A program made the position numbers and the translations under genes. Below, in pieces: positions 403 through 57,700 of a DNA stretch of 64,000 nt (the first letter of the stretch is position 1; each line of letters starts with the position of its first letter). Origin of the DNA: Eledone cirrhosa (lineage: Eukaryota); assembly GCA_964016885.1 (NCBI GenBank), contig OZ024750.1, forward strand, positions 186,001 to 250,000, read 5' to 3'. The notes beneath the pieces are model-generated. The model was not told the DNA's origin, did no database searches, and was given only the letters and a program-made list of their open reading frames with translations.

Positions 403-706
403 GCGCACACATATATATATATATATATATATACGCAGAGAGAGAGGGAGAGAGAGAGAGAGAGAGAGAGAGAAAGGTCCAAATCTTTTGAAAGCGTTAG
501 TAAATATATAAGTTAGGTAAAGCATTTCCTCTTCATTTTCCAATTCCTACTTTGATAAGAATATATTATAGCAGAAAAGCATTCACCACTTATACTTGCC
601 TAAAATATTTAATATTATAGAATTTATACTGTAAGATATTAACTGTATAATGGTGTATATTGTATCATGTACATATATCTTCTTTTTCTATATGACTATT
701 TTCCAG

Positions 707-813
707 TATTCAATGATATTGAAAAATATGCCCCTGGATTTAAATCAAGTATCATAGGATATGATCTTTTGTCACCACCAGATCTTGAAAGTATTTTTGG
801 ACTTACAGGAGGG
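707..813 (+). CDS. PYROXD2: PYROXD2-like oxidoreductase, antepenultimate coding exon
   Basis: ttccag|TATTC...GGAGGG|gtgagt splice sites; encodes (V)[35 protein letters not shown], typical of the C-terminus of the PYROXD2/phytoene-desaturase-like family. Confidence 0.9.
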
Positions 814-861
814 GTGAGTTACATTTTATTATACTTAGCTTATGCATGCATGCATAGTCCT

Positions 862-1088
862 GTAACTCCTGCGGAAGTTGTAGGGGGCACTGTATTGGAA
901 TACAGTGTTTCTGGAGCATCTTTAAACCTGGTGGCACCCATCTCCTCTCTAGGTCTGAATACAGCAGATTTCTTCCATAGAAGAAATCTGCTGTATTCAG
1001 ACCTGGAGAGGAGATGGGTGCTGCCAGGTTTAAGTTCTTTAGAAATGTCATGTCATTATAGTACCCCTACGACACCCTCAGCTATTAT
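862..1088. repeat. Long inverted repeat (head-to-head copies of a dispersed repeat) in a PYROXD2 intron
   Basis: Arms around the centre ttcttc-cata-gaagaa are near-perfect over about 65 bp; single-arm relatives at about 20840-20960 and 34130-34275. Confidence 0.85.
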
Positions 1089-1149
1089 GGATCCACAATA
1101 CCCATCCCTGAATGTAATATATGACCCTGTACTAATTGTGTAAGTGTCA

Positions 1150-5467: not shown

Positions 5468-6457
5468 CGCAGAGGGTTCTATAGAAATAGTGGACAGCTT
5501 CCGTTACCTGGGTGACAAAATCAGCAGTGGGGGAGGGTGCTCTGAAAATACAGTAGCTAGAGTCAGAACTGGATGGAAAAAGTTCAGAGAGCTTATACCA
5601 CTATTAGCCGCTAAAGGGTTCTCCCTAAAAATGAAAGGCAGGTTGTACGATGCCTGCATACGAACAGCAATGTTGCATGGCAGTGAGACCTGGGCATTGT
5701 GTGCAGAGGATATACGCAGACTAGAGAGAAACGAAGCTTGCATGCTCCGCTGGATGTGTAATAGTAATATACGTGAACGGCAAAGCATAAACGAACTAAG
5801 GAAAAAATTAGACATAAGAGGGATCAGATGTTGTTTACTCGAGAGAAGGCTACGTTGGTATGGTCACGTGATGCGCATGAAGGACGATAGCTGTATAACA
5901 AAGTGCAGGGCAATAAAGATAGACGGTAGCCACGGAATAGGCAGACCCAGAAAAACCTGGGACGAACTGATAAATTCCGACCTCACACACTTACACCTCA
6001 CCAAGACAATGTCACTGGACCGAGACCTTTGGCGGTACTCAGTAATAGAGAAGACCCGCCTTACCTAAATACAAAGTAAAACCTACTGCAGTCAGTAGGC
6101 ATCTCTAACAAAATACACCCCCGTCCCCCCCCACCCCACCCCACCCATCCACACCGCCCCTTTCAATGTAAAGTTATGTTGGTGCCACAACATCCAGGCC
6201 GAAACAAATGAGATCGTGTAGGTGTCACGTCAAAAAAACACACCGTTCACGCTGTAATGTGGCCGTGTAGGCAACACGGTAAAAACCTCCCAGCCCCACA
6301 CTGTAAATGTGGTTGGTGTTAGGAAGGGCATCCAGCTGTAGAAAACCCGCCAGATAGTCCTATGCGAGCAAGATAATCACTCTTGCCTCAAGTGGGAAAA
6401 CCCCCGTCCAAACCCATGCAAGCGTGGAATACGGACGTTAAACGATGATGATGATGA

Positions 6458-10270: not shown

Positions 10271-12970
10271 CATGATGGCTGCCTCCTCGTTATCGAGTAT
10301 GGCCATTCCACAAGAAACCCCCCCCCCCCCATTAATAATAACGACAACAACAACAATAATAATATACATATATATACACACACACGCACACACGATAGCA
10401 ATTAACAGCGCTGCGATCGAATGTGGCTTTTTAGTCCAGCCAATGATTTAAAATGTCTTGCACAGAGTTGGCAACCAAAACATTCACTGGGAATAGCCGG
10501 CTGTGGTTGGAGTTAATGTACTTTTGCATGTCACTTGAGCCCTCCTGCTGATTTACATTCTCTACCACATGCTTGGCAAGCATAATGAGTAGCATCTCCA
10601 ACAGCAGCCTGGTAGTCAACCACTGATCTCACTTTATGACTGCGAAGATGACTTTCGAGTCCAGCTTTGCTTAGGCAGAGTCTCGCACAGACACTGCATG
10701 TCAGCGCCATAGGAGGACCTTCGCCGTCTGCAAATGCAACAGTAATGTCCTTCCTCACATCCCGCTTTACTTTCTCGTATGCGATTCGAGATGCCTCAAA
10801 GACAACTTTCCCCTCATAATAAGTATTTCTCCATTTATTACGATCAGCAGCAACATTTTCCCATGTATCAGCAGAGATGTTAGCGTCTTTCAAGGAATCC
10901 TCATGCCTCTTTTTTGGTTTATGTGGAGGTCGTTTTCCTTTAACTAACTCTCCATAAAAGAGTTGTTTTGGTATTCTAGAATCCTTCATCCTGGCAAAGT
11001 GACCACTCCAATGGAGTCTTTGCTTAAGGACAAGAGCTTCTATACTGTCACACATAGAGCTTTCCAAAATCTCGACATCACTGATGTGGTCCCTCCAGTA
11101 AACGCCATGGATCCAGCTGAGACACATCTGATGAAAACGCTCCAATTGCTTAAGGTGGTGTCGATATGTGACCCAGGTCTCGCAGGCATAAAGAAGAGAA
11201 GAGAGCACACATGCCTTGTACACCTTTACCTTTGTCTTCTTGCATATGTCTCGCCGACCCCAGAGTCGCCTTTCTAGCTTTCCGAAAGCATCACTTGCTT
11301 TCCTAATCCTAAGTGGGATTTCATTATCAAGGTTGCTGTATCGATTGACAGTGCTTCCCAGGTAGACAAACTGATCAACCACTCCAAGTCGTTTACCATA
11401 CACATAGATATTTGGTTCACTGTACTGCCTACCAGGGGCAGGTTGGTACATGACAACAGTTTTCTTGAGACTGACAGTCAATCCTAGGGCAGTGCAAGCA
11501 TCAGAAAATGTATTCAAAATGTGCTGCATATCACTCTCTGTGTGCGCTACAAGATCGCAATCATTTGCATACAAGAGGTCTCTTATGATTGATGTAAATA
11601 CTTTTGTTTTTGTAGCAAAGCGCCTGATGTTAAATATGCTGCCTGAGGTTCAATATTGGATGTAAACACCATGCTCGCAGTTCCTGAATGCAATATAGAA
11701 AACCATTGCAAAGTATATGGCAAACAGGGCCGGTGCTGGAATATCCCCATGTTTCACTCCATTTTTTACTGAGATAGGCTCCAACATTAACGCAAGCCTT
11801 CATGTTGTCATGGAAAGACCTAACCAAAGCAAGGAACTTATCAGGGCAACCAAGTTTCTGGAGAACCTTCCATAATGCATTGCTGTTAACAGTATCGAAA
11901 GCTTTTGTCAGATCGATAAAAACCTGATACAGATCCAAACCTTGTTCCATGCATTTCTCCTGGAGCTGTCTAGCTGAGAAGATCATATCAGTAGTGCCAC
12001 GGCCAGCACGAAAACCAGATTGACTTTCAGGAAGAACACAATCTGCAATGTGTGTCAGCAGACGGTTCAGAAGCACCCTACATAAAACTTTCCCTACGAC
12101 AGAAAGCAATGATATACCTCTGTAGTTCCCACAATCATTCCTGTTACCCTTTCCCTTGTACAAGACCACCATTACTGCATCTCTCCAGTCCTCAGATACG
12201 GATTCATTAGCCCATATCCTGCCAAACAAAGAGTGAAGATGTTGCAGAAGTCTCTCACCACCATATTGCAGGAGCTCTGCATATATGCCATCCATACCTG
12301 GAGACCTTCCACTGTTCAGCTTCGAGATAGCTACCGCAACCTCCACAAGCGTCAGAGGTTCTGCGAGAGCTACTTTCACAGGATTTTCTGGAATGAGATT
12401 GAAGAAATCTTCATTGACGACAGACAGATGATTCAAAAGATCATCAAAGTGCTCTCGCCACCTTCGTAGAATTCCTTGTGAGTCACAAAGAAGTTCTTTG
12501 CCATCCTTGCTGCGAAGCGGTGTCACCAGAGAAGAAGACGGTTCATAAACTTCACGCAAGAGACTATACAACAGCTTTGTGTTATTGGAGTCTGACGCAG
12601 CTTGTATCTCATCAGCCTTCTCACTCCACCACTGATCCTTCATCTGAGAAAGACTCCGCCTTACACGTGATTTCACATCCTTGAGTTCCTTATGCAACAT
12701 ATTCTTCTCCTGTGGTTTTGCCGTCAAGTAGCGTGACAGAGCACGCCTCTTATCAGCCAACAAGTCTTCTATATATACATCATTCTCATTAAACCAGTCT
12801 TGATGTTTTCTCTGCACCAATCCCAGAACACGCCTGCCTACATCATAAACCAACTTTTTAAGGGTCGGCCAATCCTCACCAAGATCTGCAACCTGCATCT
12901 CTTCTCACAATGTCCTCTTCACATTTTTATCCCTAAGACGAGCAGTATTCAATCTTCTGGGCGGGGTAAC
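10271..12970 (-). mobile_element. RTE-clade LINE, 5'-truncated and frameshifted (RT plus two C-terminal C2H2 fingers)
   Basis: ORFs 11630-12898 (SPGMDGI, NYRGISLLS, QSGFR, FIDLTKAFD) and 10531-11574 (YAND~YADD, LLYACETW, CSVC..H..H, CQAC); (TATG)n tail. Confidence 0.93.
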
Positions 12971-15713: not shown

Positions 15714-18120
15714 CTAATGTAATGGTACGCGATAGAGAATGTAGAAGGCGTTTCCCCGGAGGACGGCAAGGGAGGCGCGCTGGAAAAGCCACTCCAACTC
15801 GCGGGGTTCACACCTACGGCTGGCCAGCTCAGCGCCTATGGTGGTGAGGAAGGAGGTAGCCCTGGGGCCGAGGACACCAGAAGTTTCCACTGCCAGGAGA
15901 ACGACCGCAAACCTGTCGGTGAGCGACCGGTATTTGAGGAGTTTGGCCCCCTCAGCCCGACGTGCAGCCGAACCGGGGTCAGTCGCAGACTGCACCAGGT
16001 TGCGGCTGCAGAAAGTGTCGGTGCAAGTGGCATCCTAGACGAGGGGTTTGCCACCGCGGAACGGGAAGATGGTCATGCCATCTGGCCTTTTGCCGTCCCC
16101 TCGATCCGCCCCCACCAGCTCGAGCTGGGTAGGGAAGCCTGCAGCGTCCAAGCCATGCTTAATGACCTCTTTGGCGTGGAATGCGGCCGGCACTATGGCG
16201 ACAGGAAAGCGGGTGGAGGCCGAAAGAGTCCACGGTGGAACCGCAGCGACATTGGTGTGGCTGGCAGATCCGGAGGCCGAGCCTCAGGGAAACGCCGATT
16301 CGCAGGCTATGGTTGTCTAGCTGCGTGTCAGTGGAGAAGGAAGGCAGAGCATAGAGCCAGGCACCACTGTGGGGTTTGGAGGCCGCATGAAAACAAGCAA
16401 GACGGTGCTGGTCGAGCTGGCGTGTTAGCCTGTCTGAGGCCAGGCTGCACTGGATAGCATCCCAAGTGCGTTGGGGGACTTGACGTCAACAGGGGGAGAA
16501 GAGGAGGGACGTCTACTGGGCTAAGTCCCAGCCGGTCCCACGTCTCACAGGCGGCCTCATGTTCTCTGAACACAGAGGGTTCTGTTGTGTTTTGAAGAAC
16601 CCTGCTGACGACGACGCGGCACGAGGTTACCGACGAAAGATACGCCAGCAAAGCTAGTGAGGTCGGGGACGGGAGGCCTAGGCCGCCATACCTGACCGGT
16701 AAAGTGGCCTGTTGCCACCCTATGTCGTCAAACTTGACGTTGCATATCCCCTCGGCTGTTGCTCGGATACAAGTATCGAGGTCAGCGAGGAGAGATGTCT
16801 GGGTGTAGCATGGAGCGCTGTGGAGTGTATAGAGGAGCTTCGGCATGGCGAAGCAGTTCCTCAGCAGAAAGAGAGCTGGGTGGCCGTCAATCAAACCCAG
16901 TCGGCTCGTGAGAGTCTGGAGCTGTTGAAGCCTGGACCTGATGGTGGAGCGGATGGCCGGCGGGTGGATCGGTGACCCGAGGATGAGAACATCCTCTTTG
17001 GGGGTCACCTGAACCTGGCGGAGAATGGACCGCACGTCCAAGACGGAGGCTGCAAAGCTCACAGCATCGAGGCTGACGTTCACCACCTCCGACTTGGCCG
17101 AGTTGACCTGGAGTCCGATTCCCGCTAGGGCAGGAATCACCGATTGAAGGTCTTGGCAGACCCTCTGCACGGGCCCGCCCAACGTAGCATCATCCAGATA
17201 CCAAACGTTGAGAGGGGCCGTGATACTCCGGGCGATGTGGTCAATACCAAGGGCGAACAGGAGGGGTCCCAAAGGGTCGCCCTGTTGGACCCCGACCCCA
17301 GTAGCCGAGGGTATGACCGTATCAGCAGCTAGGAGCATGCTCGGGGCTGTTGACCGGCCGCCCCGGTCTGCGCCAGTGCTGGGGAGGCCGAGGGCGAGTG
17401 GGGCGAAATAGAACAGACGCTCCCAGTCACTGGCTCGATTGGAGTCCAGGGCGCTCTCAATCGAGGAAGTGAGGGCATCGGCTACCGGCACCCGTGCCGC
17501 TCTCGGGATCCTGAGTGGGATCTTCCGGAGCCGCCTGATCCGAGCGATGTTGACCAGCGAGGCTCGGGCGTCAGGCAAGCTCGCTGTCCCATCTGGTGGT
17601 GTGCCAGACGGCCGTGGATGGGAAGACGTGGGGAAGAGGCAGCTCCTGCACCTCCACGCTGCGAGGGCATTGGAAGCTCGACGAGTCAAGCCAATGCAGG
17701 TGAGGTGGTGGAAGCAGCCGCACCCCAAACAGTTCCGGCCCCTCTTCCGTTTGTTAGTAGTGCCGCAAGTGCTGCAGGTGTCGATTTGGAGTGGTGGGGT
17801 GGGGCCGGGGACTGGGGCACTGAGCAGCATCAGGGGTGGGTGGCTGGTGTGTGTGGTTGGAAGGGAAAGTGCTGGTAAGAGAGCAGCATAGCTCACCTAT
17901 ATATATGGAGGTGCCAGAAAACGAGAGCGAAAAGGGGCTGCATGGAAGGGGAGACACAGGCAGGTAGAATGGCAGTAAATGAATGAGTGAATGGATGGAT
18001 GTACACAAAAAAGGGGTGGGAGTGGGGGAACAAGGGGTTGTTCCCAGCGGAAAGACCCAGAATTCAGCACGCCACGCACACATGCGAGCAACTGAGCAGT
18101 TTGTCAAAGACGATATTCTC
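15714..18120 (-). mobile_element. GC-rich CRE-clade-like non-LTR retrotransposon (PHD-RT-zinc-RLE), internally deleted and frameshifted
   Basis: N-terminal PHD (CSTC..CLGCGCFHHLTC..WRCRSC); GVQQGDPLGP and WYLDD; CRCG..GLHPLSC; RLE motif DGKRPDGMTIFPF..DATC..KLLKY..AVETSG. Confidence 0.88.
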
Positions 18121-29002: not shown

Positions 29003-30521
29003 TATCATCATCATTTTACGTCCACTTTTCCCTGCTTGCAAGGGTGGGACGGCTCTTATTCAGCACAGCATTTCTCCACTTGTCACGGTCCTTCGTCATC
29101 TCCACCGTGAGCTTCAGCGATCTGAGGTCTGCTCTCACCATCTCCGCCCATGTTTTTCGTGATCTACATCTACCACGTCTTCCTTCAACTGGCATTTCCT
29201 GGCACTTCTTCACCCATCGGTCATCCTCCATTCGCATCACATGTCCATACCACCTCAGTCTCCTCTCTCGCAGACTACATTCTATCCCTCTCAGACACAG
29301 TTTCTCTCTCAACACATTCATGCTGGGTCGTTCACGCACATTGACATTGCACATCCAACGGAGCATGCTTACCTCATTTCTCTCTAGCCGTCGCGTACCC
29401 TCTGTAGTTGCTGCCCATGTCTCACTACCATGCAGCATCGCGCTCCTCACACAGGCATCATATAACAGGCCTTTCGTACGCAGGGAGAAACCCTTCTTCG
29501 TCAGCAGAGAAAGCAGCTCCCCAAACTTCTTCCAACCCGTCCTTATTCTAGATACTATGGCCTCAGAATACCCCCCCCCCCCCATCCCATGCTAATCTGA
29601 TCTCCTAGGTACCACCACTTCTATATCACCCACCTGCATTTGAAAAATGTGTCTATCAATGCGACTTCTACTGTTTAATTTCCCTGTACATCTACTGCAT
29701 ACGTATTTCTCCCTACCTGTTAGTTTGCCTGCTATCCCACTACATCTCTTGTGTACCCAGGATCTGCATTGTGTGCATTTTATAGAATTTATGCCAGTTC
29801 CTTTTCTGCATATCGAACATGGCCATTTCCCTGGCAGAATCAGAGTTTTGTCCTCTTTTCTACTCATCAACACTTTTGTCTTAGCTAGGTTCACTCTCAG
29901 TCCTCTTGCTTCCAACTGCTGTTTCCATAGCCAGAATTTATTCTCTAGCTCCACTACTGATTCTGCTATAAGAACCAGATCGTCAGCATAGAGAAGTTCC
30001 CATGGACAGCCAGTCTTAAACTCCTCTGTTATGGCTTGGAGGACTATAATGAACAAGAGCGGGCTGAGGACCGAACCTTGATGTACTCCTACTTGTATCT
30101 GGAATTCCTCACTAAACTCCATTCCTACCCTGACTTTACTGACAGCACCTCTGTACAAAGTTTGCACTGTCTTCACAAGCCATTCCTCAACACCTAGTTT
30201 CCTTAGGGCCCACCAGATGACAGATCGGGGTACCCTATCAAAGGCCTTCTCTAGGTCAACAAAGGCTAAGTATAGTGGCTTATTCTTCTCTAAGAACCTC
30301 TCTTGTAATTGTCTCACCAAGAAGGGCGCATCTATTGTACTTTTCCCAGGCACAAAACCAAACTGCATCTCATCTAATTTGACCCTTTCTCTAATTAGTT
30401 GTGCTAATATCCTTTCTGCCACTTTCATAACCTGATCCATCAGTTTTATACCCCTATAATTGCTCCTCTCCAGAGCATCCCCTTTACCTTTGTAGCAATT
30501 TATGAGAATACTGCTGCACCA

Positions 30522-30522
<1 letters not shown>
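29003..30522 (-). mobile_element. 5'-truncated RTE-type LINE with RT plus an internal PHD finger
   Basis: NYRGIKL, FVDLEKAFD, GVHQGSVLSP, YADD, then CSIC..CTQC..WVHKRC..CSRC; C-terminal ORF 29016-29585 is homologous to 5466-6068; (GAT)n tail. Confidence 0.92.
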
Positions 30523-30594
<72 letters not shown>

Positions 30595-30753
30595 GTTATC
30601 CACAGTAAGTTGTGGGATCTATTCTGTATGAAGAACTCGGTGTAATCCATATGTTGAAAATGTTGTAGGTTAAGATAAATCTCGGAAAACAATAAAACAT
30701 TATCTATGAAGTATATCTCTAATGACTTGATTTTTTATTTCATTGTTTTAACT

Positions 30754-35691: not shown

Positions 35692-37107
35692 CATGATGAT
35701 GGCTGCCCCCTCGTTATCGAGTATGGCCATTGCACGAGGAGAAAAAAAAAAAAAATAAATAAAAATAAAATAAAAATAAAAAAAAGAAATATATATATAT
35801 ATATACACATATACACATACATATATACATACACATATATACACACACACATATACATTAATGACAATAATAATAATAATAATAATAACAACAATAATAA
35901 TAACGACAACAACAATAATAATATACATATACATATATATATACACATACACGCACACACATAAACATATGTATACACACACACACACACGATAGCAACT
36001 AACAGCGCTGCGATCGAATGTGGCTTTTTAGCCCAGCCAATGATCTAAAATGCACAGAGTCGGCAACCTAAACATTCACTGGGAATAGTCGGCTGTGGTT
36101 GGAGTTGGTGTACTTTTGCATGTCGCTTGAGCCCTCCTGCTGATTTACATTCTCTACCACATGTTTGGCAAGCATGATGAGTAGCATCTCCAACAGCAGC
36201 CTGGTAGTCAACCACTGGTCTTACTTTATGACTGCGAAGATGACTTTCGAGTCCAGCTTTGCTTAGGCAGAGTCTCGCACAGACGCTGCATGTCAGCACC
36301 ATAGGAGGCCCCTCGCTGTCTGGAAGTGCAACAGCAATGCCCTTCCTCACATCCCGCTTTACTTTCTCGTATGCGATTCGAGATGCCTCAAAGGCAACTT
36401 TTCCCTCATATACAGTCTTTCTCCATTTATTACGACCAGCAGCAATATTTTCCCATGTATCAGCAGAGATGTTAGCGTCTTTCAGGGAGGCTTTCGAGGA
36501 ATCCTTATACCTCTTTTTTGGTTTATGTGGCGGTCGTTTTCCTTTAACCAACTCTCCATAAAAGAGTTGTTTTGGTATTCTAGAATCCTTCATCCTGGCA
36601 AGGTGACCACTCCAACGGAGTCGTTGCTTAAGCACAAGAGCTTCTATACTGTCACACATAGAGCTTTCCAAAATCTCGACATCACTGATGTGGTCCCTCC
36701 AGTGAACGCCATGGATCCGTCTGAGATACATCTGATGGAAACGCTCCAATTGCTTAAGGTGGTGTCGATATGTGACCCAGGTCTCGCAGGCATAAAGAAG
36801 ACAAGAGAGCACAATGCCCTGTACACCTTTACTTTTGTCCTCCTGCATATGTCTCGCCGACCCCAGAGTCGCCTTTCTAGCTTTCCGAAAGCATCACTTG
36901 CTTTCCTAATCCTAAGTGAGATTTCACTGTCAAGGTTGCCGTATCGATTGACAGTGTTCCCAGGTAGACAAACTGATCAACCACTCCAAGTCGTTTACCA
37001 TACACATAGATGTTTGGTTCAGTGTACTGCTTACCAGGGGCAGGTTGGTACATGACAAAGGTTTTCTTGAGACTGACAGTCAATCCTAGGGCAGTGCAAG
37101 CATCAGG
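35692..37107 (-). mobile_element. Second copy of the RTE LINE 3' part (C2H2 fingers)
   Basis: Closely similar to 10271-11503; ORF 36045-36848. Confidence 0.92.
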
Positions 37108-38174
37108 TGCGAGCCTCGCGGGATGGAGTGGTTGTTCCAGTGCTTCTACCTCGCCATTTTCCTGAGGCAATGTCTTCTCCATTCTGCTACGAGGCAGACA
37201 AACCCTTAAACAGTGGGGTAATAAATACAGATCTCTCTCTCTCTCTCACACACACACAGTTTCTCAATTGTCAGTTATTTAAATTGAGTTACAAGCAAGT
37301 TTTCTGAGGATTATATCATTTAATGCGTCCTTCCTTTTTTAAGAAGGTAGATTATGATTTAAGGGAGATTTAGCTGTTATTTCTAGTAAATCGAACGACC
37401 ACTTAGAGGTTCTTTCATTGGTCTGACTTTGTATGGATTTTATTGAGAGGTTGGAACCTATTAAGAAGTAATTTGTTAAATAACAATCAATTTCGTCATA
37501 GCTGCACGATCTTATCCATTTTAATGCAGGTTTAATAATGGGACATGCAGGTTTAATTATTCTTTTAAAAATTAACAAGTACATACATATAATCAATTAA
37601 TTATTGTTAGAAACCTTATAAATGTTATTTACAAAAAGGTTAAATTTCTTTATTCACAGTTGTATAAATAATTGTTTCTACTATAGACACAAGGCCAGCA
37701 ATTAATCAGTACATTACTGGTACTTTATTTTATCGACCCCGTATCGATGAAAGGCAAAGTTAACCTCAGCGGGATTTATACTCAGAACGTAAAGGGCCAT
37801 GACTCTGTGCTGCAAAGCATGGTGTCTGACGCTCTACCGATACTGCCAATCCACCACACAAAAATATATAATCAAAGCAAAAGAAAGAAAAAAAACACGC
37901 CAAAAAACCATCAATTCACCTAAAATGTGTCACATCGGAATAAAATATAATCAGAGCGAGAAAAACAATGGGAAAAAAATAACCATCAATATTTTCTCTA
38001 TTTTTTATGTTAATATAACTTCTAGTGTCTCTTTTTCCAGTGAAATACGTAAAATACGCGTGTAAGGAAACTTAAAAAGGAATTTTCCATTTCATTTGAT
38101 ATATACATTTGTTTTTATAAGTTATAAATTGATGTGTGACTGTAGTGAGGATTACTGTTACACATCGAAATTGT

Positions 38175-38335
38175 TGACGTCATAAGTTGTCAGTTTGTGT
38201 TGGAGGTGTGGCTTCTTAACAAGACAGACAGGGTGGGCGGGACTTAACCATTTATGGTTAATGTGGGAACTTATATTGAAATACTATCTTGTTATTACTA
38301 TATAAACAAGCAGGTAGTTAGGAGAACTTATTCTG
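38175..38335 (+). promoter_or_regulatory. Pol II promoter: CRE, GC box, CArG, TATA
   Basis: TGACGTCA at 38175-38182; TGGGCGGGAC at 38234-38243; CCATTTATGG at 38248-38257; TATATAAA at 38299-38306; Inr-like TTATTC about 30 bp downstream. Confidence 0.7.
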
Positions 38336-38607
38336 AAACTTTGATACTCGATCACAGTACATGCAAAATTTAACAGCTAACTTGTGATTCATTTAAAGCG
38401 AGGAAAACATTATATACAGATACATTGTTGACTGCTACTATCGCTACCAGTTCTCATTCGACTCAGGAAATCGTAAAAGAATATTTACTTTGAAATTTTG
38501 TAAAAAAGACTTTACTGTAAAAAAAAAACTTCACTAATATTATTAGATTCCGCTGCCCTTTCAGTTTTTTCATCGAAGTAATTGTACCTCCCTCACACCA
38601 AGTCAAC

Positions 38608-39174
38608 ATGCTTGATAACGAAGTATATTTAAATTACGGGCCCTACCGCCGCATTCGTAGGAATGCTTTGGCCAATATACTTGAGGGATTAAAACCAGAG
38701 GCCCTTCACTGGCTTTCGACGGTTGACCAACGATGTGCGAAATATATTGATGAAGAAAATATCATTAATGGAGATGAAGGCGACGATGAGAACGACAATG
38801 ATGATGACGATGAGGATGGCGGGAAATATTCGGGAACAGATGAAAAGGACATCGTATTAAACCAAGATAAAAGAAATGAAGACGATTCTTGTCAGATCGA
38901 TTCCGAATCAGTCAAAGTGGATTGTCTGAGACGGTTAAGTTCAGTTCTGGAATATCAGTTCAAATCATCGTATGCGGCAATCCGAAGGAATGCTTTACAT
39001 GATTTACTGGAAACTTTAACTCCAGCTGAAATCACAACACTTAAACAGTTGTGTCAGTTGGAACATTGTGTGAAAGACTTGTCTTTAGAACACGATCGAT
39101 TCGATCAACTTCTTTTACCTACAAACTACCCGTACATAGAGACATATTTCGACAAATATTTAACACAGGTATGA
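38608..39174 (+). CDS. 188-aa protein with two RRNAL PKA-pseudosubstrate repeats (PKI-like)
   Basis: CAACATG start context; non-repetitive ORF in unique sequence; internal repeat YRRIRRNALANILEGLKPEAL / YAAIRRNALHDLLETLTPAEI; acidic linker; promoter upstream. Confidence 0.8.
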   Translation: MLDNEVYLNYGPYRRIRRNALANILEGLKPEALHWLSTVDQRCAKYIDEENIINGDEGDDENDNDDDDEDGGKYSGTDEKDIVLNQDKRNEDDSCQIDSESVKVDCLRRLSSVLEYQFKSSYAAIRRNALHDLLETLTPAEITTLKQLCQLEHCVKDLSLEHDRFDQLLLPTNYPYIETYFDKYLTQV

Positions 39175-39570
39175 TGAACGATATTTTACTAAGATGGAGA
39201 AAAAAAAAAAGGAATTTTATTTTAAATGTGTTAAAAAATGACGAGGAGGGGAAATATTCTACCCTGCGATAATCCGGTCAAGACACAGCTAAAAGCAAGA
39301 ATGGAAAAGAGTGTGAAGTAAGAAAGAAATTATATGAAGTGAGGGGACCAAAAATAAGGAAAAAATATTGAGAAAAAAATGAGGAAAAAAAGTTATCTGT
39401 AATAGCGAAACAATGAACAAAACCGTGACATTATCAAGGTCTCCTTAAAGGAACAAAATTTTAGTTACTTCATGACTTGAACAATTGGAAGAAACTCCGT
39501 ATCCGTGAGCAACGACTGTATACAATATTTTGAATATATTATGAATTTTATACATAATTAAGCAGCTTTT

Positions 39571-39688
39571 TTTAATTTATTTATTTATTTTCTGTATGTG
39601 AAATATTTGAAAATAAATAATAATTTGTTAAAAGAAAGAGAAAGAGAAAAGAAATGAATGATTAAAAAAATATTGTGATAGAAATAAA
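39571..39688 (+). promoter_or_regulatory. AU-rich element and poly(A) signals of the putative 3'UTR
   Basis: ATTTATTTATTTA at 39575-39587; AATAAA at 39612-39617 and 39683-39688. Confidence 0.45.
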
Positions 39689-39773
39689 AGAGATTGAACA
39701 AAATATGGAAATGAAATCTGAACGAAGAAAACAAGAAAAAAAAAGACAAGACTGTACTATATATATATATGTG

Positions 39774-39810
<37 letters not shown>

Positions 39811-39840
39811 CGTTATCAACTATAGCGAAAGAATTACATA

Positions 39841-40019
39841 TACAGGTAAAATTCCGTTATAACGAATACCATTGTAACGAATTTTTCAGTATAACGAATT
39901 TTTTTCAATCCCCGGCCACATGCTCGATGTATTTCGGTCGATCTCGTTATAAAGAATTTTTCGTTATAACGAATGTTTTTAATACCCCATGAATTTTGTT
40001 ATAAGGGAATTTCACTGTA
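39841..40019. mobile_element. pogo/Tigger-like MITE
   Basis: TA-caggtaaaattccgttataac...gttataagggaatttcactg-TA. Confidence 0.75.
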
Positions 40020-41074
40020 TAGTTCATGTATTTATTTACCTGAAGAGAAAACAAGAACATTCCGAAATAACAAGTATCATTTAGAAGATAAACCTGTCAG
40101 ATGTTAAACAAGTGTATTTATTCCTTTTATCAGGTACATACATGCTCAAACTAATCTGTGTACTGTCTATTACAACTTATACATGCTCAAACTAATAACT
40201 TATACATGCTTCGTCTCTTTACGTTCTGAGTTATTGTTGGCCTCGGTGCCTAAATCAGAAACTATTTTTTACAACTTGAATTTTAGAAAATACTACAGCA
40301 TATAATATATATGCAATAAGTACTTTCATTCCCGTTTGTAAAGTCAATATCTATGTGTGTATGCCCTACCTGCACACACTGTGTGGTATGATGTGTTAGT
40401 CACTTCCTAGTTTGGGGAGCAATCAATCTGACGGATGCAACATCAATAACAGGTTTTTGCTTATGTTTGAGTTTTTTTTTCTTCTAAGAAGTGGCCGAGT
40501 TGGCTTCCACTATGTATATACGTACCTCTGTACATGCACACGCTCATATGTTTATTTTTTTGTATTTATATGTGTGTGTGTTTGTATATGTATGTATATG
40601 TAGATATATAAATGTATATACATAAACATATATATTTGTATGTGTATATATATATATATATACATACACATAAATATATATATATGTATATATACATTGA
40701 TATTAACTAAATGGAAACTATATTTATAAAACCATATTTATTCTAGTATATATATTTCAAGGGTACCAAAATTTTGGTACACTATCATCAGATAAAATAC
40801 AAAATGTTTTATAAATATATGACATCACCAAGGATAATATACCTTAACGGTTCAAATACATATATATATACATATGTGTACAATCAGTGTATATATAAGT
40901 GTTTGTATGTGTATATATTATATATCATACTATCTATGTTAATACAGAGATTATTTACTTCGTCATTTATTGTATATTATTTTTATTTATCAATTTATTT
41001 ATTCATTAACATTTATTTTTTTATCAAAATTCTATCACAACCATTCACCCCACCCCCACTTCACTCCCCACCAC

Positions 41075-43784: not shown

Positions 43785-44757
43785 TTCTTTTATTTGCCAC
43801 CAGGGCATCAAAAGTGGGACAAGTACAATGGGGGGGGGGGGTTTACAAAACAAGGCGTCCTCAATAAGGAGGCGGCAATAACAAAATATAAAAATAAAAT
43901 AAAATATAACAGAATAAAATATATAACAAAATCCTCAATAGAGAGGAGGCGCCTTGGGGGGTCGCACCCCCACCCCCCGAAAAAAGTGTGCAACCCTTTT
44001 CCTCAGGAGCACAGAGAAGGGGCGCTCCCTTGGTCTTTCATCTTCCTCACCTATAGTCTGATGTAGAGTGAAGGCCCATTCACACGGGCCATTCTCGCCA
44101 CTTTCACCCATCTTTCATAAAAACGGCTGGGGTGCAGCACCTCTCTCTCCATCCTGATCCTTCTTCCGAAATGATATCGGAAGAAACGAACCAGTTGTTG
44201 GCCAGAGAGAAAGGTGTCTGACCTCAGTCCTTTCAGACGCGTCCACCATACAACCTCTTTCGCCATGGCTATTACGCACAGAAACACCGCCTCTCCTTCG
44301 TTTTTGAAGAGGGGAGGCGGCTTGATCGTTACAATAGACTCGGTGGTCAACCGGATCGGTCCCACCCTTGACAGCAGTTGTTCGACATAGCCCCACAGAT
44401 CAGCAATGCCCGAGCAGTGTACCAATGCATCGCACACGCATCTGGGACAGATCTTTTTCGAGGGGTCCCTACCCGGGCGCCCGTGTCTGTAGAGCCTTTC
44501 TCGAACGGGCAGAGCCCTTCTGTAGCACTGCCAGGCCAGGGACCTCTGGAAGTTATCCATGGGTCCCGGGCTGAATGTCCTACCGAACAGGTTGGCCAGT
44601 TCGTCTTCCTCCATGCCTAGGGCTTCTCCGAGGGCGTCGTCGCACCTGCTAACCACCAGCCCTCTATAGAATGACGAGGTGGATTCTCCACTGACAGCCG
44701 GGTCCGCCTGCCAGAGAGCCGTGAGCGCCTGGGCACACTCGGTGTGCCAGGCGCCCA
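43785..44757 (-). mobile_element. Tx1/L1-like LINE 3' fragment (ORF2 C-terminus with a zf-RVT-like motif)
   Basis: LAWQCYRRALPVRERL..CPRC..ALVHC..LW; GC-rich; followed by a 3'UTR. Confidence 0.75.
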
Positions 44758-48779: not shown

Positions 48780-49290
48780 AATCTACCAGGCCGTCGTTCG
48801 CACTATCCTCCTCTGTGGCTGTGAAACATGGCCCATGAGGGTAGTCGATCAACGAGGGCTGGAGGTCTTCGACAATGACTGTCTCCGCCGCATTCTTCGC
48901 TGCCGACGCGTTGATCGGGTACCTACCACCAGTCTTCGTCTTCGCCTGAATCTTCGAACCCTTCCTTCAGTGCTTCTGCAACGGCGCTTGAGATGGTTTG
49001 GTCACGCAGCCCGGCGCCCTGAGGGTGAGCTGATCCGCGATGTTCTCCTCCCACATCCACTCCCTAACTGGCGCAAGCGCGTTGGCGGGCAGCTGAAGAC
49101 CTGGGCAACGACGAACTCTCAGGTCCGCAGATGGTCGGCCTGCGCCGATGGAACCGTGACTGGCTCGCTATCTCCAGTGACCTAGCCCGGAACCGTCGTG
49201 CGTGGGCTACCATGGTTCGGGATGCCGTCAGGACAAGGGAAGAAGCCGGCTCAACCCGTCCAGGGTGAATGTCGACACAAGTACAAGTAA
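48780..49290 (+). mobile_element. RTE LINE 3' fragment (third family)
   Basis: IYQAVVRTILLCGCETW..FDNDCLRRIL..RRLRWFGH; (CAAGTA)2 tail. Confidence 0.85.
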
Positions 49291-50269: not shown

Positions 50270-53200
50270 GATTATACTTGTAATTTCCTAACTAGTTGTG
50301 TTCTTTCTGTTCCTGTGAAGCCTAGTTTCTTAAGATTTGTATTGAGGCAGTTACTAACATATCTCAGTGCCCCAATAATCACAGGCATAAATCTGAAGGT
50401 GTAATCAGGGTGGAGTATCTGCAGATTTCTCATCAGTTTTGCATAAATATTCTTCTTTGATATTATATTGGCATCTGCTGGGCAGCTAATTTCCACTACT
50501 GTGCATGTTTTCTTCTCCCTGTCCCATATCATAATATCTGGTCTGTTATGCCTGCATTTTATTGGGGTTTTTACTGGAACATTCTACCAGTACTCTTTCA
50601 TATTATGTACATGGATGTCTTCCACATTGCTGCAACTTTTAATGTGTTTATTATCGGAGCTTTCTTTTTTTACGAACTGCATTGTACAGTGTTTGGGCCA
50701 CTACATCATGCCTCATAGGTAGATAGTACCGCGAGGACATCTTTGGACAGCTGCTGATGACATGGGTGATATCCTCGATGTTAGTTCTGCAGAGTCTGCA
50801 CTTGTTATCACATCTAGGTGTTTTGCCTGCATCCCTATCTCTTTTGTGAATCAGGTATTTCGTGCTAATCTCCTGTTCTTGGATTGCAAAAGCGTATCCT
50901 TCAAAGTAGGAGCCAATATAGCGGTTGTTGGTCCAAGATAGACTACTTTCCTTATCTATATTACTCTCACTCTGGAGCTTCCTGGCAACATATCCATGCA
51001 TGATTTTTTGCTGATAAGCATGCAGTTTTTCATCCATGGATTCACTGCGATACTGCTGAGCGACTTCCCTGGGTGTAAGTTTTTGATTACCACACAGGGA
51101 ATATCTCTCGAGGAGTTCCTTCACAACTCTCATGATCTTATCTGTTTCATGCAGATAGACTTGCTCGAGAGACGGGCTCCTACGCTTCGAGGTTCGTAGA
51201 TGTTGTCGGGGAGATATGATGCGACATTCAAATGCTGTCTGGACTGATGTTAGGCCTCTGCCTCTCTGCTTACGTTTCAAGTAAAGGCGGTCTATGTTAC
51301 TGTTGATGTGGAAGTTTCCGGTGTTATTTAGTAGTTTTCGAGTTCCAACATCAACTGCTCGGATTTCGTTTATCATGCAATAGAGTATTCCAAACGTTGG
51401 TGTTAGGACAGACACAGCAAACACATTGTGAGCCATTGTTTTGTTTTGCGCAGAGAGTTCCGATGACCAGATCTTTCTTAATCGGGTATAGTATTCCCTG
51501 GTTACGCGTTCCTTATTACAGATACCATTATAGGATATGTTCTCATCTTTCCCCAGGTATCTGTAGCAGTCCTCATCAGATATCGGTGAAACAGTTAGGC
51601 CATTGATGACAATGTTGCTAGATTGGGTTGTTGTTTTACCGCGCTTTACAGTCATGAATGAGCATTTATCTTGGCCAAACTCCATTCCTGTATCCTTTGA
51701 GAACGTTGTAACTAGGTCAAGATTTTTCTTCATCCCATCCATGTTCTTGGCATAGAGTTTCAGATCGTCCACAAAGAAATTATGGGTTAGGTTCGTATTT
51801 CTGTCCTCCTGTGAGCCAATGATGTATCCCTCACATTTCTTGAGCAGAAAGGACAAGGGGTTTAATGACAAGATGAATAATATCACAGAGAGACTGTCCC
51901 GCTGAAATATACCCTTGCGATATTTTATTTTATCAGTGAAAATAGAGTCCTCCCTCTCTGTCTTTAACCTTAGGATAGTAGCCCAAGAAGAAGACAACCT
52001 CTCTATGGCTCTGACAATAATGTCTGGGACTTTAGCAAGTTGGAGGGCCTATATCATCCAAGAGTGGGGAACAGAATCGAAAGCTTTCCTGTAGTCCAGC
52101 CAGACTGTAGCCATATTCCTCCTAAGTTGTCGCACCTCCGACATCGCAGTTTTGTTGATTAGGAGTTGTTCAGCACATCCCCAAACCCCTTTCTTTCCAG
52201 CTGCTTGTTCATATGTGATGATGTTATTATTTTCATAGTGATCTTGGGGGAATAGGTTCAGGCAGGGTGTATACATCTTATACATCAGGTTCTGGCATGC
52301 AATGGGTCGGTATTTTTTTTGCCAAGTGGGTGTCTTTGTTCTTGGGGACCAGTAATGTTTGTGTTAATGTCAACCATTCTGGTATAAGTGTATCTCCCTT
52401 AAGAACTTATTGGTCGAGGTCAGTAAGATGTCTCCGATAGAATATCATTTTTTTGTACCAGTAGCCAACAATCATCTCTCTTCCTGGTGTTTTCTTATCT
52501 TGGAGTTTTCCTATCACAGTCTCAAGGGTACCCTCACTTATTTCGTATGTTTTTGTTGTAGTGTAGGAGCGCGGATTTCTCTTAGCCACACTGCATCTTG
52601 GTTGAAATTCTTCTTTTCACCCCATATTTTGCTCCAAAAGGAATCCATGTCTTTCTGGGATGGGGCTTCAGTGACACTTATTATTTTGCCCTTCATATCT
52701 CTATAGACTGATGTTTGGTTTCGTCTGAATCTTTTATTAAGCACTTTTCTCTCATCTACCTTCTTCAGGTATCGGCGTTTTTCGCTAACAGCTCTCAATT
52801 CTTGTGATCAGCTTATATTGAAGAGTTCTGGTTCTACTGTTACCAAACATCGTCTCTATTTTATTGTTCACTCTTTGTTGGTGAGGAGTGAGGTTTTTTT
52901 GTGTTTGTTTGCATGTAAGGAGCATTGTCACATATCCTATGGTTTTTCGTAGGTCAGCAATCTTTTTTTCTATTTTAGTTATATATGATGGTATTTTTGG
53001 TGGTGTTCTGTTCTTGTTAATATCTTTGCTATCACCAAGATAATGCTTCACTGTCGTTGCTAAGGCATATAAACAGGCGTTGATTTGCCAAAATGTTGGG
53101 GTTTTTATCCGTCGTAAATATTCATCCCCTATTTCATCAATAACACGTAATATTTCATTATTTGGTTTTTTATTAAACATTGTCGTTTTAATACGTTCAA

Positions 53201-53950
53201 CAAGAGAGATATTTATACATGAATTAATTTCTCTCTGGAAGATTTCGTTGAGGGAAATTTTCAATTGTTTATACTTTTGATTATTATCATTATCGATAGT
53301 ATTTTCCACAACAGTCGAGGTAGACTCGGATGGTACACGTGGTGTCAAATTTCTTCGATTATTATTATTATCGATCGTATTTTCCCCAGCATTCGAGGTA
53401 GACTTAGATGGTACAGGTGGTGTCAAGTTTCTTACAGGCATAGTTGTTTCAAGGCACTGTTCGACCTGGCTGCTAGGAAGTCTAGTAGCATGGCGACTTG
53501 TAGCACGTGTTGTTGATCCCATGTTTGTTGTGGGGGACTTACAATTAATACTATTTATCCTATTTTTACGTTCAACAAACGTCGCTTGTTGGCGTAATTG
53601 TTTCGCTGTGAAAGAATTTAGCTCTGGATGCATTTCGTCCCAGTGTACCTTCATTCTGTTCATATAGCCAATGGAGGGATTGGTTTTTTGCCATTTTATA
53701 ACAATTAAATAAATCATTATTAAGTTCGCAACTCCAAGAGAAATGCGATTTATAATTTCGCATTCTTCTGTAGCTACAACTGAATAAAGTTTGTTTACCT
53801 TTCTTGTTGTTTGTCTTCGATACTTCCTTAATTTTGTTGTTGATGTTGTGTTCAGCCATGCTGTTTGTAACAAAACCTTGTAAAATGAATTATGTATTTA
53901 GTCGGATATCCCTACGAATTCGAATAAAAGGTGTCTTCAGAAGATATAGT
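50270..53950 (-). mobile_element. R4/Dong-like RLE non-LTR retrotransposon, near full length, decayed
   Basis: YRPIAC, WLDYRKAFDSVPHSW, GIFQRDSLS, FFVDD, CRLC..EDITHVISSC..RHD, NRPDIMIWD..VVEISCP; several frameshifts. Confidence 0.9.
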
Positions 53951-55799: not shown

Positions 55800-57700
55800 G
55801 CCAGACCTTCCCACCAACCACACGACCAATGTTCTACGTTCAAGCGTAACAGTCGACGGCGAGAAGCTGCACGCGGTGTGACGAGCCCCAACAGCCCTTA
55901 CTGGCACCTACGGGCTTTCAAGTATGAACAAAACGTTAATTACTCGATGCGCTCTGACATAAATATAGGCGAGATGCGCTTCAATTGCCAATTCTGCAAT
56001 GCTACAAAGTGGGCTGGGGAGCCACCTGCAATGTGCTGCTTAAACGGTAAGGTCACCTTGCCCCCTCTTACGGAACCGCCAGAGCCTTTGAAGGAACTAC
56101 TGACTGGTTATACCTCAAGGTCAAAAAAAAAAAACCTGAACCCCCACCCCCAATAAAAAACGCTCCTGGGGTACCGGAAAAACTTTTGTAACGAATTTGA
56201 TTCTCGCTAAGATTCGTCAGGAGAAAAAAGTTGCGTTGTCCGTTGCATCGCTGCTACTTTGCTGCTGGGAGGCAGGACAGCACATTCAACCTTTAAACTC
56301 CCTTTGGATTTAATAAAAACTGAGACACCAACATGCAATATCAGCAAGAGTTCACACAAAGCTCTGGTTCTCAAAAGATGTTGCCTCAATGTTTGGGATG
56401 AGTGCACAATGGCACACAAGGGTGCCCTTGAGGCATTGGACAAGGCCTGGAAAGACATTAGGGATTCTACGGCTCCTATGGGTGGCGTAACCCTTCTGCT
56501 ATCAGGGGATTTTCGGAAAACGCTGCCTGTCATCCCCAAATGGACAAGAGCTGATGAAGTGCGTGCCTGTCTTAAGTCGTCCATGTTGTGGCTCCAGGTG
56601 AATAGTTTGTACCTGAGCACAAATATGCGTGCTCATTTGCATGGTGACAACATGTCTGCAGCACAGAACATTTTAACACTTGGTGAGGGCAAGATCCCTG
56701 CGGATGACAAGGGCGGCATAGCAATCGACACCCTGTGCAACATTGTGAGCAGCCCTTCTGACCTTTGGGAAGCAGTTTTTCCTAATGACTCATCGAACTT
56801 TAAAAACCTCGATTGGCTCAGCGAAAGAGCCATCCTTGCTCCGAAAAATACTATGGTTAATTTTATTAACGAGCAGCTGAATGAGAAGATTCCCGGTAAA
56901 GAGCACATCTTCAAATCAGACCCCGACGATATCGTTAATTATCCGGTTGAGTTATTAAATCTCCTTGAGCCCCCAGGGCTCCCACCTCACATTATTAAGT
57001 TTAGGGTTGGCTGTCCCATTATGCTAATAAGGAACTTGCGTCCACCAAAGCTGTGCAACGGTACTCGCATGGTCGTCAAGTCACTGACACCCACTTGATT
57101 GAGGCCACCATTGTAACGGGGTGCGGAAGAGGGGAGAATGTTTTCATTCCAAGGATGAACCTTTTCCCCTCGGCGTCAGATATCCCGTTTGATCCCATGT
57201 TTTGCCATGTCCATTAACAAGTCACAAGGGCAAACATTGTCGGTGGCGGGCATCCATTTGGGGGAGCCATGCTTCTCCCATGGCCAACTTTATGTTGCCT
57301 GTTCCCGCGCAGGGAGCAGGAATGGACTTTTTGCTTACTCTCCTCAAGGGATGACACGCAATATCGTCTACAAAGAGGTGCTATAGATGTTGGTGCAGGT
57401 GTTGGAGCTATGCCGTCTGGAACACTATTTCCTGGTAGGGTCTCCCATGGCGGACAGATCTGACACCCAGCGGCATCAGGGCCACCATCTTGCAACTTTG
57501 GTCTACTAAATTCGCTATTGGAAGATTATTAACCTATCATTGATTGACCAAAATGCTAATTAGTTCGTAACTTTTAATAACCGGTTCAACTGCTTTATGC
57601 ACTTAATTGATAAGCTTATTCGCTTTCAAACCACGTTTACCTGTATGTAACTTTTCATAGCAAATGAACAAACCCGAGCAACGCCGGGCTAAACTGCTAG
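55800..57700 (+). mobile_element. Decayed Helitron (N-terminal Zn motif plus PIF1-type helicase; Rep domain deleted)
   Basis: CQFC..CCLNGKV; APG-TGKT, GGRTAHSTFKLP, WDEC, GDFR, LCNGTR, FAMSINKSQGQT, FSHGQLYVA; 3' hairpin cccgagcaacgccggg plus CTAG|T at 57697-57701. Confidence 0.92.

Follow-up and report, generated by a model that had tools for sequence, protein, structure and literature searches.

A single-exon cephalopod gene with two RRNAL boxes: member of a multi-box family of putative PKA pseudosubstrate regulators

The locus described here raises the question of whether a small protein with two copies of an RRNAL motif could inhibit the catalytic subunit of PKA (PKA-C), as was originally predicted, or whether the motif has another meaning. 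The window (the whole stretch of 64,000 nucleotides of Eledone cirrhosa DNA that was analyzed) contains a single-exon ORF on the forward strand at 38608 to 39174, translated from the window as 188 amino acids and set in AT-rich DNA loaded with repeats (Table 1). An in-frame stop is present 29 codons 5′ of the ORF start with no in-frame ATG in between, and the start methionine is shared by the orthologues in four of five aligned relatives; in the Argonauta model, the protein is extended by 20 residues at the N terminus. Two public contigs cover the ORF, one being the same as positions 38100 to 39300 and the other the same as 38376 to 39300, without mismatch, gap or joint, both coming from runs of one study that may be the source of the assembly itself. 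A contig of 1,412 bp (depth 131) starts at 38376, 77 nt past the start of the TATA candidate, and the contig of the other run extends further upstream; as contig ends cannot reveal an RNA start, this position carries no weight as a start of transcription. The run with the 1,412-bp contig comprised 88 million letters, compared to approximately 1,400 in three other runs. No RNA data set containing the ORF was found among the matches of the sequencing-run search.

The two predicted RRNAL copies were found at residues 17 to 21 (38656 to 38670) and 126 to 130 (38983 to 38997). R14 and F118 occupy, as claimed, P-6 of box 1 and P-11 of box 2, respectively (numbered from the phosphoacceptor position, P0), and the linker described as acidic has 24 Asp or Glu among the 57 residues from 48 to 104. 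The codons of the two cores were also given correctly; 13 of 15 nucleotides are identical, and two synonymous changes are weak evidence of selection by themselves. RRNA[LIVM] occurs twice in the six frames of the 64-kb window. At the DNA level, a degenerate pattern built from the same two boxes, too strict to detect the paralogue, had two matches in 2,995,841,428 bases, both inside the 188-aa ORF, and none for a reversed control. The six-frame count and the genome-wide rarity of the DNA pattern indicated that the RRNAL pair is not a product of chance.

Between and beyond the boxes, the protein contains further short motifs. The RRLS site is present in four of the five octopod-group proteins scanned and missing from the Sepia protein and the paralogues. 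The class-1a NES-like pattern was not found at this position in the paralogues, and a class-1 match was also obtained in 1,695 of 2,000 shuffles. Most cephalopod orthologues and paralogues have a Ser-Pro about 16 residues before the box 2 Ala (38938 to 38946; residues 111 to 113), a possible proline-directed phosphosite in which the Pro is replaced by Val in the 188-aa protein. No cAMP-binding domain was detected in a Pfam scan of the protein. The AlphaFold2 model (pTM, 0.20; mean pLDDT, 49) lacks a globular fold and is locally ordered and helical at the boxes, with block means of 75 and 75 for residues 131 to 150. PDB sequence searches gave nothing beyond matches at E values of 8.9 and 1.7, and the ESM Atlas held no usable match for the 188-aa protein or for P0038.

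Relatives were detected by a single-sequence search (6 among 227 candidates) and by a profile search (13 among 3,725). Full-length orthologues, the search for which had been suggested with the original prediction, were recovered from four named species, Octopus bimaculoides, O. vulgaris, Argonauta hians and Sepia (Acanthosepion) pharaonis. Conservation was also selective: the linker has drifted in the orthologues of Octopus, Argonauta and Sepia and in a paralogue, all of which retain both boxes. The Sepia-cluster orthologue, P0006, is identical to the 188-aa protein at 15 of 21 positions in box 1, 20 of 24 in box 2 and 11 of 67 from residue 38 to 104. Residues 126 to 149 are identical at 16 to 21 of 24 positions across all 11 aligned relatives. 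Three proteins, P0009, P0010 and P0014, were dropped for divergent C-terminal tails that are possibly assembly errors. A search of the species' own genome found one paralogue, an intron-free gene for 231 amino acids with the same two boxes (G000:C1:360470608-360471300, plus strand), identical to the 188-aa protein at 17 of 24 box 2 positions and 7 of 67 linker positions; a four-box relative used as the query in this genome gave no match. Judged from these comparisons, the 188-aa ORF is a real, conserved, single-exon cephalopod gene.

Table 1. Features of the 188-aa gene and its upstream region (positions in the window)
Feature	Position	Strand	Remarks
Full palindromic cAMP-response element (CRE), TGACGTCA	38175..38182	.	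433 bp 5′ of ATG, 124 bp 5′ of TATA box
GC box (38235-38240) and CArG/SRF-type box (38248-38257)	38235..38257	.	
TATA box candidate	38299..38305	+	One of five TATA-like matches in upstream 1 kb
188-aa ORF	38608..39174	+	Single exon; protein predicted mostly disordered
Box 1, residues 13-36	38644..38715	+	RRNA-L pseudosubstrate core and predicted helix; LxxIxE-type pattern also present
Acidic variable linker, residues 48-104	38749..38919	+	Residues 38-104: 11/67 identical in Sepia-cluster orthologue
RRLS, candidate true PKA phosphorylation site S111	38929..38940	+	18 residues N-terminal of box 2 Ala
Box 2, residues 118-148	38959..39051	+	P-11 Phe, RRNA-L core, helix-turn-helix; most conserved part
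Class-1a NES-like pattern, residues 151-160	39058..39087	+	In 5/5 octopod-group proteins; weak

Some observations concern the surroundings of the gene. An 8-codon upstream ORF at 38361 to 38387 (plus strand) lies in the presumed 5′ leader; past the TATA candidate, no other ATG precedes the start codon. On the 3′ side of the stop, the segment from 39575 to 39688 (plus strand) has AATAAA at 39612 and 39683 and AU-rich elements (three ATTTA and one TATTTAT), such as a short-lived mRNA would be expected to carry. Very high-copy interspersed repeats lie on either side of the gene (37594 to 37875 and 39756 to 40037; summed contig depth of up to 3 million). Fragments resembling the reverse transcriptase of non-LTR retrotransposons, belonging to several elements, were recognized by eye at 5631 to 6068, 10531 to 12898, 16328 to 17830, 29016 to 30650, 36045 to 37182, 44051 to 44614, 48835 to 49185 and 50651 to 53717, as was a PIF1-type Helitron helicase-like fragment at 56409 to 57098 (plus strand). 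The start of an ORF at 667 to 1143 (plus strand) may be an exon of a neighboring gene, presumably one resembling a phytoene-dehydrogenase/PYROXD2-like oxidoreductase.

The upstream region contains a cluster of putative promoter elements (Table 1), the TATA candidate at 38299 having been preferred for its position immediately 3′ of the CRE, GC and CArG sites. There are four CArG matches and four CREs in the 64-kb window. Upstream of the paralogue, neither a GC box nor a CArG box was found; a full CRE is present at −242, with a 3′ flank similar to that of the CRE of the 188-aa gene, together with a reverse CCAAT, a TATA-like element and three further half-CREs in 990 bp. The genome as a whole has 40,261 CREs, or 1 per 74 kb, giving a chance of approximately 0.007 per 500 bp. 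A CRE within 500 bp of the start codon was present in both of the two paralogues and in 33 and 31 of 5,000 Markov resamplings, with a 500-bp limit that was picked after the fact. As the two CREs probably share ancestry and the limit was picked afterwards, the pair is suggestive only. We infer from the site itself that CREB binds the CRE.

A profile of 12 sequences was compared with 1.84 billion representatives and gave 23 matches at an E value of ≤0.001. Of these, 5 belong to the cephalopod groups and 16 are additional box proteins; the other 2 (P0033 and P0042) were dropped because no box was seen in either. The 16 further box proteins are 126 to 477 amino acids long and have two to seven boxes each, spaced by at least 27 residues; the family median is 50 residues, compared with 109 between the boxes of the 188-aa protein. 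Of the ten of these proteins that were looked up, one is named, from the gastropod Babylonia areolata, and the label of a mollusc family thus rests on five named species, the other four being cephalopods. An HMM made from the 75 non-cephalopod boxes only scored the 188-aa protein at 40.3 bits and its boxes separately at 21.6 and 16.0 bits, compared with a best score of 9.3 bits among 2,000 shuffles, 1,256 of which gave a score. This detection made the link between the multi-box proteins and the cephalopod genes reciprocal. No clear orthology of first or last boxes with those of the multi-box proteins emerged from box-to-box similarity, and a metagenome scan for family DNA yielded 175 candidate stretches, of which 0 were confirmed. 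An RxxSxP near one end, which we take to be a 14-3-3-like motif, was observed in 9 of the 16 outside relatives.

The consensus of the 102 boxes is RR-x-[A/G]-L-[A/G]-[D/N]-I-F-x-[G/D]-[L/I/V]-x-x-[E/D]-[E/D]-[I/L/V]-x-x-L. When 28 family proteins were scanned with a regular expression for the downstream half only (P+3 to P+13), 66 boxes were detected, all of which had RR at P-3 and P-2, a count subject to selection bias because the proteins had been gathered with an RRNA-containing profile. In these 66 boxes, P0 was Ala in 59 and Gly in 7 and never Ser or Thr, P-1 was occupied by 13 different residues, and P+1 was Leu, Met or Val in 63. A looser scan of 54 proteins gave two exceptions, representing one non-box site in two near-identical proteins. 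The boxes of the cephalopod groups were uniform, with RRNA-[L/M] in 27 of 27. The published consensus of PKA substrates and inhibitors, as given in the accessible part of PMC5059767, is R-R-X-S/(A/G)-hydrophobic. This is the pattern of the family boxes, and the two boxes of the 188-aa protein match its pseudosubstrate form exactly. A literature search, which included few subscription journals, produced no report of a multi-box family or of tandem PKA pseudosubstrate repeats, and the available text of two octopus studies examined for lists of immediate-early genes (PMC9712504 and bioRxiv 10.1101/2025.10.16.682951) makes no mention of the gene, although a locus number could be held in their supplements. 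The multi-box family is, apparently, undescribed.

The original prediction had presented the protein as a PKI-like inhibitor. PKI itself, with 70 to 75 amino acids, carries a single site, a high-affinity region at the N terminus and, at residues 37 to 46, an NES, according to the part of PMC7234811 that was available. Residues 118 to 137 of the 188-aa protein matched Pfam PKI with an E value of 0.0084 and 16.8 bits, below the 25-bit cut-off; the best relative had 20.7 bits, no member reached 25 bits and the cephalopod members leaned to PKI, all below threshold. Box 1 has the P-6 Arg only and box 2 the P-11 Phe only, neither site having both. These PKI-type residues, which had been used to link the boxes to PKI, are not features of the family, being present in 19 (P-6 Arg) and 12 (P-11 aromatic) of the 102 boxes, and their rarity counts against a PKA inhibitor. 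The conserved segment of the family is helix-forming and lies downstream of RRxA, whereas that of PKI lies upstream.

A true PKI exon is present elsewhere in the genome (G000:C1:304874694-304874828, minus strand; 51.9 to 53.4 bits in Pfam). This exon encodes the high-affinity region and the RRNAL core, is followed by a GT donor and matches PKI-alpha in the PDB with an E value of 5e-5; judged from it, cephalopods possess a true PKI. On the 75-box model this PKI scored 9.4 bits, about as much as the highest-scoring shuffle (9.3 bits), and hence homology of the boxes to PKI was not established; it also gave no TC1 match. Assignment of the 188-aa gene as a PKI member or orthologue was rejected given the score below the cut-off, the restricted occurrence of the P-11 and P-6 residues and the separate PKI in the genome. 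The original prediction is supported in part: what stands of the PKI-like reading is the RR-x-A-hydrophobic motif in both boxes and the sub-threshold Pfam match. We infer that the 188-aa protein works like a PKI without being a member of that family.

On balance, we consider it probable that the 188-aa protein is a cAMP-induced, multivalent feedback inhibitor of PKA-C. The family more generally is likely to represent a new, multivalent type of pseudosubstrate regulator with a testable link to TC1. In the proposed mechanism, cAMP would free PKA-C, CREB would bind the CRE and the single-exon mRNA would quickly be made. The two Arg residues of each box would pair with the acidic cleft of PKA-C, the Ala or Gly would occupy the phosphoacceptor position and the next hydrophobic residue would fill the P+1 pocket, so that the box would act as a nonphosphorylatable decoy plugging the active site of the free catalytic subunit. 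The segment from P+3 to P+16 may fold on binding, either providing a second kinase contact that replaces the upstream high-affinity helix of PKI or recruiting a second partner. With 109 residues between the boxes (the family median being 50), each box could hold its own kinase; one kinase per box would create a multivalent sink, two kinases per molecule for the 188-aa protein, and the outcome would be a delayed feedback brake on PKA.

Several observations bear on this mechanism. PKA-C is encoded in the genome, where four of its C-lobe exons were located (G000:C27, about 3686000-3695000, minus strand), with C-lobe sequence near-identical to animal PKA-C. In favor of a PKA decoy, PKI was the most frequent Pfam match among 34 family members at an E value of ≤1 (20 members, compared to 17 for TC1 and ≤5 for every other family), and the core of the genome's own PKI, RRNAL-x-N-I, is the same as that of box 1. 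Against it, 11 of the 75 non-cephalopod boxes have Lys, Gln, Thr or His at P+1, and the RRNA cores are helical in the AlphaFold2 model; pseudosubstrates bound to a kinase are extended. A prediction of the complex of box 1 (residues 1 to 42) with animal PKA-C, ATP and Mg, made without alignments or folded controls, gave a score of 0.02 and a mark of 0.34 and carries no weight on either side. Few PKA pseudosubstrate inhibitors are known, each of those reviewed having one site. With tandem decoys of two to seven boxes, and a CRE in both paralogues, cAMP signalling would gain a multivalent feedback loop dependent on transcription. This signalling underlies long-term memory in molluscs.

Three other functions of the boxes, and the absence of any function, have to be weighed against this reading. 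The boxes may be docking motifs for a non-kinase partner, either PP2A-B56, through a basic patch followed by LxxIxE, or a TC-1-type partner, e.g., Chibby, through the helix, an explanation that we regard as unlikely but as the main rival. Conservation strongest downstream of RRxA is in accordance with docking. The PP2A-B56 motif, [LMFIV]xx[ILV]xE, is present in 27 of 27 boxes of the cephalopod groups but in only 13 of 75 non-cephalopod boxes, where P+6 takes 14 residues. In the accessible part of PMC7108865, B56 binding is enhanced by basic patches that precede LxxIxE, but these patches are dynamic and variably spaced, which leaves the fixed RR-x-[A/G] register unexplained, and B56 docking could be a function added in cephalopods rather than an alternative. 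For a TC-1-type partner, TC-1 competes for Chibby and has regions of helical propensity (PMC3506533, in part), and 15 of the 16 non-cephalopod relatives have Pfam TC1 matches at an E value of ≤0.1, but the boxes match only about positions 6 to 49 of the 75 in the model. Inhibition of one or several other basophilic kinases (PRKX, PKG, Akt/SGK/RSK or Aurora) by the same pseudosubstrate principle is slightly less probable again. The genome contains an exon at G000:C4:161687857 that is PRKX-like, and presumably PRKX, plus two further matches to the activation-loop pattern, and the downstream helix, for which the solved PKI(5-24) peptide offers no equivalent, may select another kinase. Arg or Lys at P-5, which also suits Akt/RSK-type kinases, is present in 44 of 102 boxes and thus counts against a PKA-only reading; however, fixed Arg at P-3 and P-2 with a variable P-5 is the PKA-type pattern, box 2 of the 188-aa protein lacks a P-5 Arg, and the CRE best fits a cAMP loop.

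Much less probable than either is an incidental RRNA match in boxes that are really half death-effector-domain helices or LxxLL nuclear-receptor boxes. Weak Pfam matches to the death-effector domain were obtained for 2 of 22 proteins (E values of 0.027 and 0.09), and a PYD chain was matched in the PDB at an E value of 1.7, but only 1 of 34 members matched PF01335 at an E value of ≤1, below the cut-off, and AlphaFold2 predicted no six-helix bundle. LxxLL occurs in 14 of 27 cephalopod-group boxes but in 0 of the 75 others. That the locus has no functional gene, the ORF having arisen by chance or representing a pseudogene or one exon of some larger gene, is scarcely credible: the exact 188-aa protein is absent from the protein collection searched and a pyrimidine-rich AG is located approximately 45 nt before the ATG, but the full-length orthologues in four named species, the box-specific conservation, the intact paralogue and the promoter elements contradict this explanation.

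The TC1 matches extend the PKA decoy reading to vertebrate proteins. TC1 was matched by the 15 non-cephalopod relatives noted above, six of them above the 27-bit cut-off, with a best score of 66.5 bits; the high scores are sums over repeats, and a single stretch alone reached an E value of 0.1 in only 1 of 16 proteins. The C-terminal part of the model remained uncovered. The 188-aa protein had no match to Pfam TC1, and the TC1 model gave two noise matches in the species' own genome. AVPI1 and C11orf96 are, we assume, also members of PF15063. In the available portions of the literature, TC-1 is a single-exon gene reported from jawed vertebrates only (PMC5349172) whose disordered product, with regions of helical propensity, competes for Chibby (PMC3506533); TCIM, C11orf96 and AVPI1 were upregulated by GLP-2 receptor agonists (PMC12073449) and Tcim and Avpi1 by cAMP elevation (PMC9346484), and AVPI1 is a candidate CRTC2/CREB target (PMC6656544). 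The term pseudosubstrate was not found with TC1 gene names among the matches listed in the literature search. Common descent of PKI, TC1 and the multi-box family is a hypothesis. In its widest form, which we advance with considerable doubt, PKI, the vertebrate TC1 proteins (TCIM, AVPI1 and C11orf96) and the mollusc family would have in common a single kinase-decoy box of ancient origin; proteins of the TC1 type would be unrecognized CREB-induced PKA feedback inhibitors, multiplied by molluscs into 2- to 7-valent PKA sinks, and in cephalopods PP2A-B56 may be recruited by the box as well, so that dephosphorylation would be coupled to the block of the kinase. TC1 members are cAMP induced in vertebrates, have been described as vertebrate specific and, in the accessible parts of the literature searched, have no kinase-inhibitor role. 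If true, this hypothesis would provide a molecular function and a pre-vertebrate origin for the human cancer-linked TC-1 family and an inducible off-switch for the molluscan cAMP-PKA-CREB memory pathway.

Comparison with known systems places the family among several types of kinase regulator. Like PKI (PKIA/B/G; PF02827), its members are small disordered proteins with an RRNA-hydrophobic core followed by x-[D/N]-I; unlike PKI, they have 126 to 477 amino acids, two to seven boxes, conservation downstream of the core and no family-wide NES, and the 188-aa gene is a single exon. A precedent for a duplicated kinase-inhibitory box is provided by Inka1 (PMC4674680, in part). The PAK4 inhibitors Inka1 and Inka2 resemble the family in that a pair of inhibitory boxes is embedded in sequence that is otherwise unconserved but differ in the kinase, the motif (Pro at P0) and the restriction to two copies. 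PKA-C is also blocked by non-PKI proteins, ARHGAP36 and the type I PKA regulatory subunits, via an RR-x-A/G-hydrophobic or PKI-like motif, according to the available part of PMC5059767, and a PKA pseudosubstrate motif is likewise described for Smoothened in the portion of the literature accessible; in these proteins a single motif is part of a large folded protein, whereas the family boxes are essentially the whole protein. The 188-aa gene shares with TC1 (PF15063; TCIM/C8orf4/TC-1) a single exon and a disordered product with helical segments, features that are shared but not diagnostic, and only the first two-thirds of the TC1 model is matched by the family boxes. The induction of vertebrate TC1 genes by the cAMP pathway is paralleled by the CRE upstream of both cephalopod paralogues.
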